Shown here: positions 54,741 through 64,000 of the stretch, one piece after another
How positions within the stretch are numbered: the first letter of the stretch is position 1
Layout: each line of letters starts with the position of its first letter
Assembly (NCBI GenBank): GCA_044892525.1
Contig: CM097885.1
Location: forward strand, 22,260,001-22,324,000
Source: Schmidtea polychroa
Taxonomy: Eukaryota
DNA: 64,000 bases
Reading direction: 5' to 3'
Translations under genes and position numbers: made by a program
Notes under the pieces: model-generated
Databases searched by the model: none
What the model was told of the DNA's origin: nothing
The model's input: only the letters and a program-made list of their open reading frames with translations

Positions 54741-55727
54741 TTAATAAAATTCGGTTGTTCGGGATCTCGTCTCGATGACGGCTCTGGTTTCAATGTTTGG
54801 GGAAGATTTGAAGTAGCTTGGTTGGTTCGTTGTTTGGACTAGCTGTTCTTCCATTGGGATACGAATACTTCTTGATTGTTCCTTTAGTTTGAGGGTTTTG
54901 TTTCTTTCTTTACTGGAATTGGGTTTGAGTGCAATCAGGCTCAGTACGGTGATGTTTATCATTAGGCTCGCCGCTAATAGGATCAATATTGTGAGGGATT
55001 CAGACTCTCTCGGTTCTATTACTTTGGGTTTGTTCATAATTTCTTTTAATTGGGTTGTATCCGCCGTTTCTGATTTTTCGGGCTTATTGAATTTGTTTTC
55101 TTCTGAGGTGACAACTTTCTTTATTGCCTCAAGGGTTTTAATCATCTTCTCGGAGTTCGTTGGGTTTTTGTTTATGGTAGTTAGGATTTCCCTTGTCATT
55201 TCTTTCAAGGTTTTCGTTACCTCATTTTTAATGCTGGGTTCCTCTTTGATGATGGAAGTTATTTTTCCTTTCATTTCCTCCAAAGATTTTACTACTGTTT
55301 CGCAATTGCTTGAACGTCCATAGGCGGTTGCTGTTACCTGTTGTTTTATTTCCTCTAATATTATTACCATCATTCTCATTGCGGCTGGATCTGTTTGGGA
55401 TTCTCTCTTTGATTTCTGACTTTGACATTGTTTGGCTAATGTTGCTATCTGGGTTCTGATAACTTTCATTTCTTGTTCTAACATTGTTTTTATTGTCTGA
55501 GCCATTTGCACTTCCGTCGAACTTTCAGTTGTTTGTGGACATTGCGAACATTGTAACTTGATTTGTTCGCATTCCTCATTGGGTTTTTCGCAGATCGATT
55601 TAAAGCTACTACATGTACTATCTTCTCTGCGATATGGGTATTCTTTCTGGCATCTGATCATTGATTCTTCTGCTTGCAGGATTTTTGGCATTGTCATTAT
55701 AATCATCATCACGATTAGGCTTCTCAT
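54741..55727 (-). CDS. Type I membrane protein, TNF-receptor-like architecture
   Basis: Signal peptide, a 6-Cys N-terminal domain, helical/coiled-coil stalk, TM (LTILILLAASLMINITVLSLIAL) and a cytoplasmic PMEE motif. Confidence 0.6.
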   Translation of the reverse strand: MRSLIVMMIIMTMPKILQAEESMIRCQKEYPYRREDSTCSSFKSICEKPNEECEQIKLQCSQCPQTTESSTEVQMAQTIKTMLEQEMKVIRTQIATLAKQCQSQKSKRESQTDPAAMRMMVIILEEIKQQVTATAYGRSSNCETVVKSLEEMKGKITSIIKEEPSIKNEVTKTLKEMTREILTTINKNPTNSEKMIKTLEAIKKVVTSEENKFNKPEKSETADTTQLKEIMNKPKVIEPRESESLTILILLAASLMINITVLSLIALKPNSSKERNKTLKLKEQSRSIRIPMEEQLVQTTNQPSYFKSSPNIETRAVIETRSRTTEFY

Positions 55728-55803
55728 CTTTACATATACATATATGTTAATAATAATTACTTGGCTTTATTTACAATTTATTTACACGGTTATTTTGTCT
55801 CAT

Positions 55804-56571
55804 TTATTGGGAGCCACCGACCTCATCCCTTAATTTTACGGGAGGTTCAGGTGCTCGTCTTTTGCTCAACTCGTTCATTCTTATTACTTCGAGTTGCGTT
55901 GCTATCAACTGTCTCTTTAATTCTGGTATTTCTTGTAATTGCTTCTCTTTACTTTTCCATTTTCTCTGCTTGATGGTTATTGCCGTCTGCAATGCTTGCA
56001 TGCTTCGTCGTTTTTGATTTAAGATTCTCCGGTAATTTTCTTTCAACTTCCATTGTTTTTCTGTTTCCTCTCTTTGTTCCTTGATCTCTTCCTTGAGTTT
56101 TACATTTCTCTTCTCGACTTTTTTACTTTCTCGCACTCTTGTTTTTGCATAAGCATATTGTGCTTCTAACTGCTCGATATAGACTTGGTCGATATTCACA
56201 ATCTTTTTCAACTTCCTTGTTTCTGATTTCCAATAATCTTCGATTACTGCCTGAGCTCTCAACTCTACTATCTCTTGTCTCAGGTTTTTATTTTCTGTCT
56301 CTTTTCGTTTCGATTCCTTTATTTCCCTCAAAATTTCTTGCTTGACAGTGTTTATTAATCGTCTTGATTGAACAATATGCTGCCTCAATCTCGTAATCTC
56401 TACATTTTGATTTGCAATCTTTAATTTGAACAACTTCTTGCTGACTCTCCATTTATTGCTATAATATTTCATCGGTTCTTGTTTGATTGGTATCATATCC
56501 TGGTTTTGTTCAGGTTGGTCGTTTGACTTTCCTTCGTTACTCGTTGATTCTCTTTCTTTTAAATAATTCAT
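55804..56571 (-). CDS. Basic coiled-coil protein
   Basis: Long K/R/E/Q-rich heptad ORF. The likely start is MNYLKE, directly after TTTTTGTAG; an alternative ATG lies at 56589. Confidence 0.75.
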   Translation of the reverse strand: MNYLKERESTSNEGKSNDQPEQNQDMIPIKQEPMKYYSNKWRVSKKLFKLKIANQNVEITRLRQHIVQSRRLINTVKQEILREIKESKRKETENKNLRQEIVELRAQAVIEDYWKSETRKLKKIVNIDQVYIEQLEAQYAYAKTRVRESKKVEKRNVKLKEEIKEQREETEKQWKLKENYRRILNQKRRSMQALQTAITIKQRKWKSKEKQLQEIPELKRQLIATQLEVIRMNELSKRRAPEPPVKLRDEVGGSQ

Positions 56572-61700: not shown

Positions 61701-61848
61701 TCCTATTTATAATACATGGTCATCATACTTGTTTTTGATTTTTCTACATATTGTTTTAATTTACTACTTTTATTTTGTACATACTACTACTATTATCACT
61801 ACTTTTATCATTTCATTTATACATTATTTACAACAACTCCTCCTCTCG

Positions 61849-64000
61849 TTATACCAGTGTCGCCATGGGGCCGGAATGCAGCGTGCGCATTCCCCCATAT
61901 CTTTCGTCCGTTATTCGGTATATATCGACTTCGTGTGTCCATTCGTTCGGTGTGGGTATTCTTGGTAGTTCCGACATCCACAATCCGCTGGATCCGGGAT
62001 CCTCTACCACCTCGTATTCTTCTAGATTCAGATTCTCTGTTGGAATACCGTATTCAAATTTTTCCACTTTGGGCCATTTTCTTTGGTTTCTCGGTTTTTG
62101 TTTACATCTTTTGGTGGTTCTTATCCACTGAATCATTGCTAACGCTATTATCGTGCTTACTATCGCGCTAGTTATCCATATCATCTTTGTGATGATCGTT
62201 GTTCCATTATTTGTTTTTTCTGTCGTTAATATTGTACTACCTGTGGTATTTGTTTCTGGTGCTTTGATTTTCTTGAATGCTTGATGTAATCGTTCCTTCT
62301 CTTTTTCTGTTAGGTGACTGTGATTTTCCCGTTTCTCTCCCCCTTCTTGATCTCGGGGTATCCACGGTATGTTTATTAATTGGGGTTTTTGTCGAGTTAT
62401 TGGTTGACATACGCTGGTTCCTCTTCCTTTCTTAAGGATACATACTTGGTATCGTTCTTTCCGTTTCCCTGTCTCCATTTTAACGTCTGTACCTTTGTCT
62501 ATCGGTGTTGTTGTACAGTCGATTATTCCCGTCTTATCCATTACACATATCCTTATGATTGGTTCTCCTTCCTGGTTTTTGACTGTAATTACCTCTTCAC
62601 CTTTCTTGTTGAGGTTAATAGTTATCTGCACTTCCCGTCTTTCGTCTTTAATTACTTCGTTAATCCATGTTGTTGTTGTTATTAATTCGGTTTGATTTTG
62701 CTCTGTTGTTGTTTTTGTACTAACTGATTTGTTTGGCTTCTTGGTTGTTATCCCCCTCAATGGATCTTGTTTCATTGCCATACTCTTTGGCTTGTCTTTT
62801 CTTGGTGCAGTTCTTGTTCCTTTACATACTACTATCCCTTGTGTTCCTGCGCATACCACAGTAGGGGTATTTGGTTTGACCTCTCCCCAGAAGAATTTGT
62901 GGTCTTGTGTCATATCAGTTATTATGCATATGTCTCTGTCTTCTCTGATGCATACATGTGTAATTGATCGACTCCCTTTATCTTCTATTTCGATACCTTC
63001 TTCCAAAATGTTGAGTTGAAAATGTACTCCGGTTTCGTTGGCTCTTTCTAGCTCCATTTCCTCTGTTGATATGTCTCTACAGATGTCATAATCTCCACAT
63101 AGCCTGGGATCTCTTTTTTGGCTGCTAAAAATCTTTCCTTTTGTTATCGATCTGAAATCACAACTTACTCCTGTTCCTTCCATTAGTTGCACGCATATTC
63201 CGACGGCATTTCCGTCGTAATCACTGACTTTTATCATAAATACTTCACCTTCTTGGGAAGCTTCTCTTACGATTCTCATATTTTTTGTTTCTGTTAAACA
63301 GATGGATGTTAATATTATAAATATTCTTTGTAGTAGGATTGGCTGGATTTGATTTCGACACACTATGCTATGTAGTGGGGACTTTCGTTTTTTGTTCTCC
63401 GTTTTGTCGAATCCTTGATCTTCACCTCGACATTGGTCTTCTTCGTCTTCTTCCAATTCCTCATCATCACTCGTTGTTTCTCCGCCTTCCGGATTCTGTT
63501 CTCTGTCGTTTTCCTCTGGGTTGTTATCGTTATCCCCCATCCTTTCGTCGTCGTCGTCGTCGTCATTCCTCTCACCCGGGGTTTTCCTGAAAATGTCGTC
63601 CTCGACATTTGCTGCTTTGATCATCTCCTCGTATTTTTTAATTATCTCTTTTTTGTCGTTGTGGATACTTTCTCGTTCTTCTTTGGTTCCTTGATATTTC
63701 CGTTGTTTCCGGTGCCATTCCCACACTAGTATTTCTAGTTGCTTTTTCATCGCATGTGTTTTTGTGCATTCCCACCAATTACCTGTCAATTCTGTTCTAT
63801 TTCTCTGTAATATTGCTTTAATGGTTTTTGGCATTGGTGGTCTTGAGTATATGGCGCTTCTTAGTACGATATTTTCGTTGTTTTGGAATTGATTTATATC
63901 AATTACTTCCGCTCTTAATTCGTTTTGTTTCCATTTGATTAATATTGCTGCGGTTCTGTCTAAGTTTCCTCTGATGGCTTCCAGAATTGGTTCAATGCTC
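61849..64000 (-). CDS. Large membrane protein or polyprotein, 5'-truncated by the window
   Basis: The frame is open to the window edge upstream of the called ATG (63834). It has an acidic linker, an internal signal-peptide-like segment, repeated Cys-pair beta modules, Thr-rich stalks, a TM (MIWITSAIVSTIIALAMIQWI) and a cytoplasmic tail. Confidence 0.8.
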   Translation of the reverse strand, partial: SIEPILEAIRGNLDRTAAILIKWKQNELRAEVIDINQFQNNENIVLRSAIYSRPPMPKTIKAILQRNRTELTGNWWECTKTHAMKKQLEILVWEWHRKQRKYQGTKEERESIHNDKKEIIKKYEEMIKAANVEDDIFRKTPGERNDDDDDDERMGDNDNNPEENDREQNPEGGETTSDDEELEEDEEDQCRGEDQGFDKTENKKRKSPLHSIVCRNQIQPILLQRIFIILTSICLTETKNMRIVREASQEGEVFMIKVSDYDGNAVGICVQLMEGTGVSCDFRSITKGKIFSSQKRDPRLCGDYDICRDISTEEMELERANETGVHFQLNILEEGIEIEDKGSRSITHVCIREDRDICIITDMTQDHKFFWGEVKPNTPTVVCAGTQGIVVCKGTRTAPRKDKPKSMAMKQDPLRGITTKKPNKSVSTKTTTEQNQTELITTTTWINEVIKDERREVQITINLNKKGEEVITVKNQEGEPIIRICVMDKTGIIDCTTTPIDKGTDVKMETGKRKERYQVCILKKGRGTSVCQPITRQKPQLINIPWIPRDQEGGEKRENHSHLTEKEKERLHQAFKKIKAPETNTTGSTILTTEKTNNGTTIITKMIWITSAIVSTIIALAMIQWIRTTKRCKQKPRNQRKWPKVEKFEYGIPTENLNLEEYEVVEDPGSSGLWMSELPRIPTPNEWTHEVDIYRITDERYGGMRTLHSGPMATLV

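Follow-up and report, generated by a model that had tools for sequence, protein, structure and literature searches.

The final 9 kb or so of the DNA analysed here, a 64,000-nt stretch of the Schmidtea polychroa genome (the window), holds a block of closely spaced genes (54741..64000) that a preliminary description had read as a mobile or virus-like cassette. We asked what carries these genes and what they may do for their carrier. The block is the 3' accessory-gene part of a giant Ty3/Gypsy-like LTR retroelement, and the copy concerned is very young. Its mobile nature was borne out beyond position 64000, where gag, fusion glycoprotein, protease, reverse transcriptase (RT), RNase H, and integrase sequences lie between 4.78-kb LTRs. 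The two LTRs are in direct orientation and 99.958% identical across 4,782 columns of a blastn alignment, and their sole differences are two 1-base indels. A 19-nt stretch that opens with TGG, 8 nt past the 5' LTR, is read as a putative tRNA primer-binding site. The small ORFs within the LTR matched no Pfam family, and the larger one (121 aa) carries an RGRP AT-hook-like motif. The genome that carries the element comprises 781 Mb, has four very large contigs, and is ~70% AT. As first described, the accessory region has a higher GC content (0.355-0.40 vs 0.23-0.34 in most of the window) and a purine-rich coding strand (43% A and 22% G).

A chimeric join near position 49600 had initially been considered. 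Position 49606 is instead a true LTR edge, next to a 4-bp target-site duplication, and the element sits in the protein-primed DNA polymerase gene of a Maverick/Polinton transposon. All 11 of the 11 paralogous Maverick sites are empty, and the flanks are contiguous there with a 4-bp overlap. The block could in principle be a cluster of host genes, or a provirus that was domesticated and became fixed here, which would fit the intact reading frames and nothing further. Against such an origin stand the near-perfect LTR identity, the breakage of another transposon's polymerase gene, and near-identical copies in the hundreds, dispersed over all large contigs. We give it next to no credence, and it was refuted by the copy number, the target-site duplication, and the empty paralogous sites.

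Table 1. Features of the element and its insertion site (positions marked "extended" lie beyond the end of the window)
Feature	Position	Strand	Details
Maverick/Polinton protein-primed DNA polymerase gene, C-terminal half	48838..49605	-	interrupted by element
Target-site duplication	49602..49605	.	CTAT, 4 bp; second copy extended 84585-84588
Whole LTR retroelement	49606 to extended 84584	genes on minus strand	34,979 bp
3' LTR	49606..54385	-	4,780 bp, TG...CA ends
Two small ORFs within LTR	50004..51049	-	111 aa and 121 aa
TM328	54741..55727	-	328 aa, type I membrane protein; six-Cys module, helical stalk, TM 247-265
Further TGTAAATA copies	55768-55775, 55779-55786, 56705-56712, 59707-59714, 61220-61227	-	
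CC261	55804..56589	-	261 aa, Lys/Glu-rich, cysteine-free; read as coiled coil
A35 run on coding strand	56664..56698	-	begins 5 nt past the UGUAAAUAA motif downstream of CC532
CC532	56731..58329	-	532 aa, long, Glu/Lys/Arg-rich; read as coiled coil
TGTAGATA variant	58378-58385	-	
IAP	58412..59590	-	392 aa; canonical BIR (~residues 60-141), IAP-type C-terminal RING (340-382)
Full-length TRAF	59731..61155	-	474 aa; variant RING, TRAF zinc fingers, coiled coil, MATH (327-465)
A151	61245..61700	-	151 aa; PNQPS/PSQPT (PxQxT) motifs at residues 39-46
Gene-end motif TGTAAATA following ORF1 stop	61825..61832	-	
ORF1, C-terminal 716 residues	61849..64000	-	frame goes on to extended 76224
5' LTR, twin of 3' LTR	extended 79803-84584		4,782 bp
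Maverick/Polinton polymerase gene, N-terminal half	extended 84585-86943		

The polyprotein frame, ORF1, is open for 4,791 codons from stop to stop, and a RING ORF of 160 aa lies upstream of it. ORF1 encodes, in order, gag with CCHC knuckles, a MATH domain, a weakly Bcl-2-like stretch, a mononegavirus-type fusion glycoprotein, protease, RT, RNase H, integrase, ankyrin repeats, and a membrane-anchored beta-sandwich protein. Pfam searches of a 3,332-aa piece placed protease at 1964-2052, RT at 2277-2435, RNase H at 2498-2627, and integrase at 2736-2907 (positions within that piece), and also identified Monjiviricetes_fusion (E 2e-68), MATH (E 3e-29), and Ank (E 1e-07). The fusion glycoprotein thus sits between MATH and protease. 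CCHC was found at 2e-12 in the N-terminal piece, which was scanned separately. Residues ~1680-1880 gave weak PDB matches (E 0.5-1.4) over a BH2-like GGW stretch, and 35 of the 36 were to Bcl-xL. The part of ORF1 that falls in the window includes the ankyrin end together with an acidic stretch and a hydrophobic segment, as well as the beta-sandwich domain(s), a Thr-rich stalk, and a TM segment with a tail.

Seven intact co-oriented ORFs had been counted in the block. Six of these (A151, TRAF, IAP, CC532, CC261, and TM328) are indeed separate, intact minus-strand ORFs 3' of ORF1, with short spacers of 76-151 nt, and the seventh is the C-terminus of ORF1. The full-length TRAF adjoining a BIR-RING IAP is real. 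The TRAF has the architecture of its family, which runs from an N-terminal RING through TRAF-type zinc fingers and a coiled coil to a C-terminal MATH (TRAF-C) domain, as judged from Pfam (MATH E 8e-27, zf-TRAF 1e-06), from alignment of residues 32-178 to the RING and zinc fingers of TRAF6 (E 8e-10), and from a MATH domain that aligns best to TRAF5/1/3/2 (E 1e-20 to 1e-16). Its RING is atypical, with C-x4-C spacing and a Cys in the usual His place, and E3 activity is therefore uncertain. The IAP, by sequence, has the features of the RING-IAP family, namely at least one BIR (CX2CX16HX6C) and a C-terminal C3HC4 RING (Pfam BIR 9.5e-16; IAP-type RING, zf-C3HC4_3, 3e-12), and matches NAIP, cIAP1, and XIAP in PDB. 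Only one of its BIRs is canonical; there is also a degenerate BIR-like CX2C...H...C stretch.

The remaining accessory proteins are less readily classified. A151 was without a Pfam or PDB match; the PxQxT motif reported in a small protein is its PSQPT at residues 42-46, and the part C-terminal to the motifs is read as helical. CC532 had no PDB match at E <= 0.01, and CC261 matched no Pfam family. The N-terminus of TM328 is hydrophobic and is read as a signal peptide; the protein also has a single TM segment by hydropathy and a 63-aa tail in which a pattern search found PMEE. It had been described as a TNFR-like receptor and so as part of a whole TNFR-TRAF-IAP module, a claim that the searches did not establish. 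In Pfam, TM328 had no match even at E <= 10 except Opy2 at 1.9-3.1, and neither a sequence search nor a 2-sequence profile matched it to a PDB TNFR; neither membrane protein matched the TNFR family in Pfam or PDB sequence searches. Its ESM Atlas neighbours include clusters of the single-CRD TNFRs Grindelwald, Wengen, Fn14, TACI, BCMA, and BAFF-R, with scores of 0.75-0.81 that are below the reliable range, and the Cys-module region of its AF2 model was unusable. A single-CRD TNFR identity is thus a lead only. The Cys module has one cellular relative (P0001, E 8.8e-06), and a host paralogue on contig C3 is encoded by an exon pair whose intron splits the module.

We then considered how the accessory ORFs may be expressed. 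The motif UGUAAAUA was found 17-29 nt 3' of the stops of ORF1 and of four accessory ORFs, and the IAP stop is followed 27 nt downstream by UGUAGAUA. Within the 25.4-kb internal region, six of seven TGTAAATA occurrences lie 17-29 nt past a stop codon (P ~2e-06 to 6e-11). The motif was kept in subfamily copies wherever the sequence covered it, and most start codons have a splice-acceptor-like AG within 5 nt. Because the gene-end motifs are conserved and AG dinucleotides lie near the starts, which is a hint, each accessory ORF probably gives rise to its own mRNA, with UGUAAAUA after the upstream stop serving as a putative gene-end signal; the conserved motifs thus suggest separate mRNAs and not the single expression unit originally envisaged. 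The role of UGUAAAUA as a 3'-end signal is unsettled, since it also fits the Pumilio-binding consensus. Against separate mRNAs, contigs of uncertain kind bridge some of the accessory-ORF spacers. For the A run downstream of CC532, an unbroken stretch of 24-54 A was present in 11 of 17 loci examined, including the window's own locus (35 A).

Copy number and divergence were used to assess whether the cargo is maintained. The TRAF ORF proved to be multi-copy, with 338 candidate loci, and all 40 of the 40 that were scored were full length with ~100% identity. There were 309 candidate loci for the BIR and 358 for the TM328 relative. Were the accessory ORFs neutral passengers, that is, host genes caught by chance in an element that burst recently and not yet decayed, the near-identical copies would look much as they do. 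Given the youth of these copies, intact frames by themselves prove little, and the copies differ by 0-5 nt per ORF, mostly non-synonymously, as is expected of decay after insertion. Comparison between subfamilies tells against this. TRAF dN/dS was 0.14, 0.18, and 0.16 at dS 0.11-0.26 against three subfamily copies (0.14-0.19 across subfamilies that are dS 0.11-0.27 apart) and IAP dN/dS was 0.21 at dS 0.20 against one, values that come from only four pairs of copies picked for open frames. By hand count, frames of at least 481 aa were kept in 57 of 80 accessory-TRAF rows and frames of 387-400 aa in 122 of 150 BIR rows. The intergenic motifs are conserved as well. The TRAF-to-IAP spacer was less diverged than synonymous sites in a count on the alignment. 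TRAF and IAP are under purifying selection between subfamilies (dN/dS 0.14-0.21), with frames intact in the sampled copies, and the neutral-passenger reading is disfavoured and in our view very improbable.

Selection on these genes raises the question of their origin and use. The element has two MATH domains, one within ORF1 and one in the downstream full-length TRAF, which are 48% and 34-35% identical, respectively, to a host-like TRAF. Because of the 48% identity of the ORF1 MATH domain and the intron-containing host paralogue of the TM328 Cys module, we infer that the cargo was captured from host genes. Viral IAP and Bcl-2 homologues tune signalling or block cell death, and by analogy the cargo may tune TRAF/ubiquitin-dependent stress and immune signalling to the element's benefit and might block the death of cells that express the element or are entered by it. 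A different use of the same domains is unlikely, yet deserves more weight than neutral carriage: the RING/BIR/MATH/ankyrin proteins could serve as ubiquitin-ligase adaptors, either to clear away host restriction or silencing factors or to traffic Gag and Env, with structural coiled-coil proteins and no TNFR-TRAF-IAP survival pathway. Such a use would suit the three IAP-type RINGs or RING-like domains (in the upstream 160-aa ORF, the IAP, and the TRAF), the MATH-only domain beside Gag, the ankyrin repeats after integrase, and the unmatched TNFR families. It fits less well with a TRAF that retains the full receptor-adaptor architecture and a MATH domain closest to TRAF1/2/3/5, or with a BIR that, from its match to XIAP/cIAP BIRs, appears to be of the caspase/IBM-binding kind. 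The weak Bcl-2-like stretch, a motif also listed in the account of related elements in PMC6431247, hints at a cell death theme.

Taken as a whole, the data are best explained by a young Burro/GYPSM1-type copy with host-derived cargo that serves the element and with separate accessory mRNAs, a reading to which we assign a probability of about 0.85. Its parts have counterparts in several known systems. Baculoviruses, entomopoxviruses, and iridoviruses carry viral IAPs with BIR and RING domains, and viral Bcl-2 homologues are known. The element resembles these in the capture of host cell-death regulators by a mobile or viral genome and in the BIR-RING architecture; it differs in that the carrier is an LTR retroelement and not a DNA virus, in the one canonical BIR, and in the placement of the IAP beside a TRAF. 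EBV LMP1 and other viral receptor mimics recruit TRAFs via PxQxT. The PSQPT of A151 and the PMEE of the TM328 tail are short TRAF-type motifs that may be comparable, although there is no sequence relationship to LMP1 and the element carries its own TRAF besides any host TRAF it might hijack.

Among retroelements, complex retroviruses and foamy-like fish ERVs have accessory ORFs 3' of pol, as summarized in PMC6431247. The element shares with them several small ORFs between pol and the 3' LTR, with a splice acceptor expected before each. Unlike them, it has a separate conserved UGUAAAUA after each ORF, an arrangement that would be unexpected if the LTR poly(A) site served every mRNA. A closer likeness is to the Burro-like element of Dugesia (Girardia) tigrina, which, as outlined in PMC6431247, also has a giant polyprotein, accessory ORFs, and an element-borne MATH domain. 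That element differs in its 5,140-aa ORF1 without MATH, in a MATH domain placed in an upstream accessory ORF, and in a midasin-like region.

The closest counterpart is Burro1/GYPSM1 of Schmidtea mediterranea, a giant Gypsy-like LTR retrotransposon (Jurka 2007 and Grohme et al. 2018, cited in Arkhipova & Yushenova 2019, PMC6431247). According to the summary in PMC6431247, Burro/GYPSM1 exceeds 30 kb and has an ORF1 of ~4,873 aa with three CCHC knuckles. Its env lies in frame, flanked by gag and pol, and MATH_TRAF_C, BIR, AIR1/RING, Smc coiled-coil, ankyrin, and Bcl-2-like motifs are present; CC532 probably corresponds to the "Smc" motif. The cassette had been thought unlike any transposon family, and these published motifs speak otherwise: the kind of element is already described and not new. 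By description, the two share a length of >30 kb, multi-kb LTRs, an ORF1 of ~4.8 kaa in which Gag has three CCHC knuckles and which also carries MATH_TRAF_C, a weakly Bcl-2-like stretch, and ankyrin, in-frame env, the order PR-RT-RH-IN, BIR, RING, and Smc-like accessory ORFs, and many copies, and ORF1 is 4,791 codons here vs the published 4,873 aa (PMC6431247). The element is thus of Burro/GYPSM1 type by every published descriptor, an assignment set by description and not by an aligned reference sequence. In the parts of the literature drawn on here, BURRO1 is reported as abundant, active, and gut-enriched (PMC8532177), and Burro is listed with the most active stem-cell TEs (PMC6884822). The TM328 host paralogue and the full-length TRAF architecture are absent from the Burro descriptions consulted in PMC6431247, and the gene-end motif, the AG near start codons, and the TRAF and IAP dN/dS values are apparently new details beside these accounts.

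The next 40 kb past position 64000 were read with the window numbering continued (extended coordinates); the window is C1:22260001-22324000, on a large contig of the 781-Mb genome. The preliminary description had suggested looking there for a replicative gene, and gag, fusion glycoprotein, protease, RT, RNase H, and integrase domains were found, all within a single frame, ORF1. This frame belongs to a retroelement of Burro/GYPSM1 type bracketed by 4.78-kb direct repeats, whose sole differences are two 1-base indels. These LTRs run from TG to CA, and the element lies between two copies of CTAT, a 4-bp duplication. 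A 19-nt stretch beginning with TGG, 8 nt inside the 5' LTR edge, is read as a putative tRNA primer site. Upstream of ORF1 comes an additional ORF, of 160 aa, that encodes an IAP-type RING. ORF1 itself has weak Bcl-xL BH2-type matches, in line with the published BCL2-like motif of Burro. Its tail contains a confidently predicted beta-sandwich domain with generic structural neighbors only, and the 661-aa tail as query gave no usable ESM Atlas matches; as modeled, this other membrane part is not TNFR-like. Some stretches of the leader that separates the upstream RING ORF from the first ORF1 ATG are present twice, as judged by eye. Two ORFs within the 3' LTR, and likewise in the 5' LTR, occupy the GC-richest LTR part (0.41); neither had a family match, and an RGRP AT-hook-like motif closes one of them.

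The element lies within the gene for the protein-primed DNA polymerase of a Maverick/Polinton and divides it in two; this flanking sequence has >3,000 candidate copies in the genome. The empty-site comparison proposed earlier drew on 12 loci carrying the 500 bp left of the element, namely 11 other Maverick copies and the window. All 11 paralogous sites were empty: the flanks were contiguous, with an overlap of precisely the duplicated 4 bp, which identifies position 49606 as an LTR edge. The insertion is real and recent. The chimeric join feared near 49600 was therefore rejected. A host gene cluster was also rejected, given the bracketing LTRs, the 4-bp duplication, and the many near-identical copies genome-wide. 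The LTR pair, target duplication, retroviral ORF1 domains, and hundreds of candidate loci agree with the initial reading of the block as mobile or virus-like.

Features of the element and its neighbors. Positions beyond 64000 are extended coordinates, and E values are from Pfam.
Feature	Position	Strand	Description
Second Maverick/Polinton-like segment	1-7750		Other lineage; several small plus-strand ORFs without Pfam match
pPolB frame of second segment	3296-7750	-	Uninterrupted, 1,484 aa; DNA_pol_B_2 1e-14
Interrupted Maverick/Polinton	47403-49605, resuming 84585 to about 92500		rve integrase with chromodomain; A32-type packaging ATPase
Maverick 193-aa ORF	47403-47984		IAP-type RING, 39% identity to Burro IAP RING
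Interrupted pPolB gene, halves	48838-49605 and 84585-86943		
Retroelement	49606-84584	-	34,979 bp
LTRs	49606-54385 and 79803-84584		
LTR ORFs	50004-51049	-	111 and 121 aa
TM328	54741-55727	-	
CC261	55804-56589	-	
A35 run	56664-56698		
CC532	56731-58329	-	
IAP	58412-59590	-	BIR 9.5e-16; zf-C3HC4_3 3e-12
TRAF	59731-61155	-	MATH 8e-27; zf-TRAF 1e-06
A151	61245-61700	-	
ORF1	61852-76224	-	4,791 codons; CCHC zinc knuckles (gag); MATH 3e-29; Monjiviricetes-type fusion glycoprotein 2e-68; retroviral protease; RT 4e-35; RNase H 2e-38; integrase (H2C2 9e-23, rve 2.5e-12); ankyrin repeats
ORF1 leader	76536-78597		~2.1 kb, without long ORFs

The accessory block (54741-64000, minus strand) had been described as seven ORFs. 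Six are separate and intact (TM328, CC261, CC532, IAP, TRAF, and A151, of 328, 261, 532, 392, 474, and 151 aa, respectively); the seventh, open at the window end, is the C-terminus of ORF1. The short spacers, higher GC, and purine-rich coding strand noted at the outset were confirmed: spacers are 76-151 nt, GC is 0.355-0.40 vs 0.23-0.34 across most of the window, and the coding strand has a strong A-over-T excess (43% A, 22% G). The full-length TRAF and the BIR-RING IAP were recovered by both Pfam and PDB sequence searches. TRAF residues 32-178 aligned to the TRAF6 RING and zinc fingers (8e-10), its MATH domain aligned best to TRAF5/1/3/2, and the IAP BIR and RING matched NAIP, cIAP, and XIAP. 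Pfam assigned no family to the other accessory ORFs, and A151, CC261, and CC532 had no significant match in the PDB search either. With TRAF as protein query, a homologous-protein search gave 4,521 word-sharing candidates and none at E <= 0.001. The PxQxT-bearing small protein is A151, with PSQPT at residues 42-46, and the TM328 tail contains PMEE; both motifs are short and could easily occur by chance. Complex prediction for TRAF residues 300-474 (coiled-coil/MATH) with the TM328 tail (residues 266-328) gave no verdict: the scores, from runs without controls, were 0.21 and 0.24 vs a mark of 0.34 and count neither for nor against binding.

TM328, the candidate receptor, combines a hydrophobic N-terminus and a cluster of six cysteines (within ~40 residues) with a long helical stalk, a single TM segment, and a tail of 63 aa. 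Its description as TNFR-like is at best tentative: Pfam (E up to 10), PDB sequence, and two-sequence profile searches returned no TNFR family. The AF2 single-sequence model (mean pLDDT 51.8, Cys module < 60) was too poor for structure search. The nearest ESM Atlas clusters, at 0.75-0.81, were Grindelwald, Wengen, Fn14, TACI, BCMA, and BAFF-R, which are single-CRD TNFRs; these are leads only. When 1.84 billion representatives were searched exhaustively with HMMER, a single relative emerged, P0001 (E 8.8e-06), an unnamed 244-aa cellular protein with the Cys spacing and type I layout of TM328. P0001 as query in a homologous-protein search returned itself alone. Its best genome match was a two-exon locus on another large contig (C3), 55-56% identical in the first exon and with an intron that interrupts the Cys module; of the scored rows, the other 149 were weaker, and most carried the 341-aa frame of TM328. 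From these comparisons, TM328 appears to be an intron-free offshoot of a family of cellular membrane proteins, and a cargo gene with an intron-containing host paralogue fits capture through processed mRNA. Membership of that family in the TNFR superfamily is less likely than not. A whole TNFR-TRAF-IAP module, as first proposed, is not borne out as a complete circuit, given that TM328 lacks a TNFR family match.

Sequence divergence between copies was used for the dN/dS comparison that had been recommended. The figures come from four pairs, with copies chosen for open frames. Three diverged TRAF subfamily copies from elsewhere in the genome (amino acid identity 96.4%, 90.3%, and 91.4%, all frames open) gave Nei-Gojobori dN/dS of 0.14, 0.18, and 0.16 vs the window copy, at dS of 0.11, 0.26, and 0.25; by domain, all three values were < 0.31. 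The IAP of one subfamily copy is intact and 91% identical, with dN/dS of 0.21 at dS 0.20, and 0.03 for the RING alone. The element TRAF and IAP are under purifying selection, and therefore both matter to the element. Identity between the element TRAF and three host-like full-length TRAFs was only 26-29%. The MATH domain of ORF1 is 48% identical to one host-like TRAF and only 34% to the accessory TRAF, so the two element MATH domains are not recent mutual duplicates.

Copy number, another point raised initially, proved high: TRAF ORF DNA had 338 candidate loci, and the 40 scored were all full length at ~100% identity and spread over all four large contigs and small ones. The 9.6-kb accessory block had 702 candidate pieces; among 16 scored, 15 besides the window were full length (one split). 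In these best-scoring copies, a non-random sample, A151, TRAF, IAP, and CC532 were intact in 16/16 loci holding them, CC261 in 15/16, and TM328 in 7/7 holding the whole gene (window included; the remaining loci were truncated at 10 kb), with 0-5 nt differences per ORF. A Pfam search for MATH gave 1,551 candidates. Among the 150 scored, hand counts assigned 80 to the accessory-TRAF type (open frame of at least 481 aa in 57), 13 to the ORF1-MATH type (full 4,791-codon frame in six, 2,405-4,785 codons in the others), and 57 to the host-like type. Among the host-like rows are intronless TRAF frames of 455-473 aa and, on a further large contig (C2:105-124 Mb), a large array of MATH frames of 177-233 aa. 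For BIR, there were 309 candidates; 122 of the 150 scored had 387-400-aa frames (hand count), and only the last looks unlike the element IAP. Almost every scored BIR match and hundreds of MATH matches in this genome are element-borne, which calls for caution in gene-family counts. The 'TRAF/MATH expansion' reported from planarian transcriptomes (PMC6109357, in excerpt) may be partly inflated by element copies. Contigs from sequencing runs of two other studies of organism A and of a second organism B matched the accessory block (54886-63999) with ~3-7% differences, mostly transitions, and one further run was nearly exact; accordingly, there are diverged subfamilies or strains, and another species has a relative.

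A motif at gene ends offers a concrete handle on how the retroelement expresses its six extra genes. In the internal region (25.4 kb), the coding strand has seven occurrences of TGTAAATA, and six of these sit 17-29 nt past the stops of ORF1, A151, TRAF, CC532, and CC261 (two). UGUAAAUA marks the ends of ORF1 and four accessory ORFs, with UGUAGAUA after IAP; if the fifth base is left free (TGTANATA), IAP also has one, 27 nt past its stop. The binomial P for these positions is 6e-11 vs the whole internal region and 2e-06 vs its non-coding part. The motif is unchanged in three subfamily copies wherever sequence was covered, and the TRAF-to-IAP spacer has ~7% differences (our own count on the alignment), below synonymous sites. 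Six of seven accessory starts have AG within the preceding 6 nt, three directly abutting (P 0.01 vs 0.35 per window of this kind). We infer from the sequence that a 3'-end signal of poly(A) type would close every ORF and a splice acceptor would open the one after it, so that the precursor would be cut into separate mRNAs. The main alternative is that the motif is a Pumilio-binding site, since it fits the Pumilio-binding consensus, UGUANAUA. Sequencing contigs over 49606-63999 from four runs, of uncertain kind, include some that bridge spacers, and clean joints at the accessory ORFs are absent from them. If separate mRNAs are made, the element may use spliced-leader trans-splicing, which is present in Schmidtea (PMC10899757, in excerpt). 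The A35 run behind CC532 starts 5 nt past the gene-end motif; 11 of 17 loci inspected, among them the window copy, have 24-54 consecutive A here. The run resembles a poly(A) tail that has become a templated part of the element, as might follow from capture or recombination via polyadenylated RNA. A limited search of the literature on Burro polyadenylation or GYPSM1 gave no description of an intergenic motif, and the positioned gene-end motif appears to be undescribed.

We place at about 0.22 the probability that the Burro 3' block is an operon-like array of captured genes with separately processed mRNAs, forming a ligand-independent TNFR-TRAF-IAP survival circuit, with copies that inflate the 'TRAF expansion'. 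The members of this array would be a small TNFR-type receptor, a PxQxT-bearing oligomerizer, a TRAF, and an IAP, all retro-captured from the host. A conserved 3'-end signal, UGUAAAUA, would terminate each gene and a splice acceptor would mark its start; host splicing (possibly spliced-leader) and polyadenylation would cut the single precursor into separate mRNAs. The products would together keep element-expressing planarian cells alive; as a side effect, the expansion would appear larger than it is because hundreds of TRAF/MATH and BIR copies belong to the element. From the preliminary description, the mobile, virus-like cargo block stands, and the complete circuit is a conjecture. Burro ranks with the largest known retroelements, and in a major model of regeneration it is both abundant and transcribed; Burro RNA levels increase on smedwi-2 RNAi. 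For a retroelement to carry a TRAF, an IAP, a Bcl-2-like stretch, and possibly also a receptor is biologically striking.

Burro was first entered as GYPSM1 (Jurka 2007) and is described, in excerpts of PMC6431247, as a giant gypsy-like LTR retrotransposon of S. mediterranea, >30 kb and with thousands of copies. Its 4,873-aa ORF1 is listed there with Gag (three CCHC knuckles), MATH_TRAF_C, Ubi2/SUMO-like, BCL2-like, env in frame between gag and pol, PR, dUTPase-like, RT, RH, IN, and ankyrin; AIR1 (RING), Smc, and BIR are also among its motifs, and the authors already proposed that Burro meddles with host apoptosis and ubiquitination (PMC6431247). In excerpts of two other papers, BURRO1 is abundant, active, and gut-enriched (PMC8532177), and in stem cells Burro belongs to the most active TEs (PMC6884822). 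The element analyzed here is of this published family, a name assigned from the published description and not from reference-sequence alignment. The earlier remark that such a cassette was not recognized from any transposon family accordingly gives way, as the block fits Burro as described in these excerpts. A retroelement with a TRAF, an IAP, and a Bcl-2-like stretch is in print at the motif level; added here are purifying selection on TRAF and IAP, an intron-containing host paralogue of one cargo gene, and the positioned gene-end motif.
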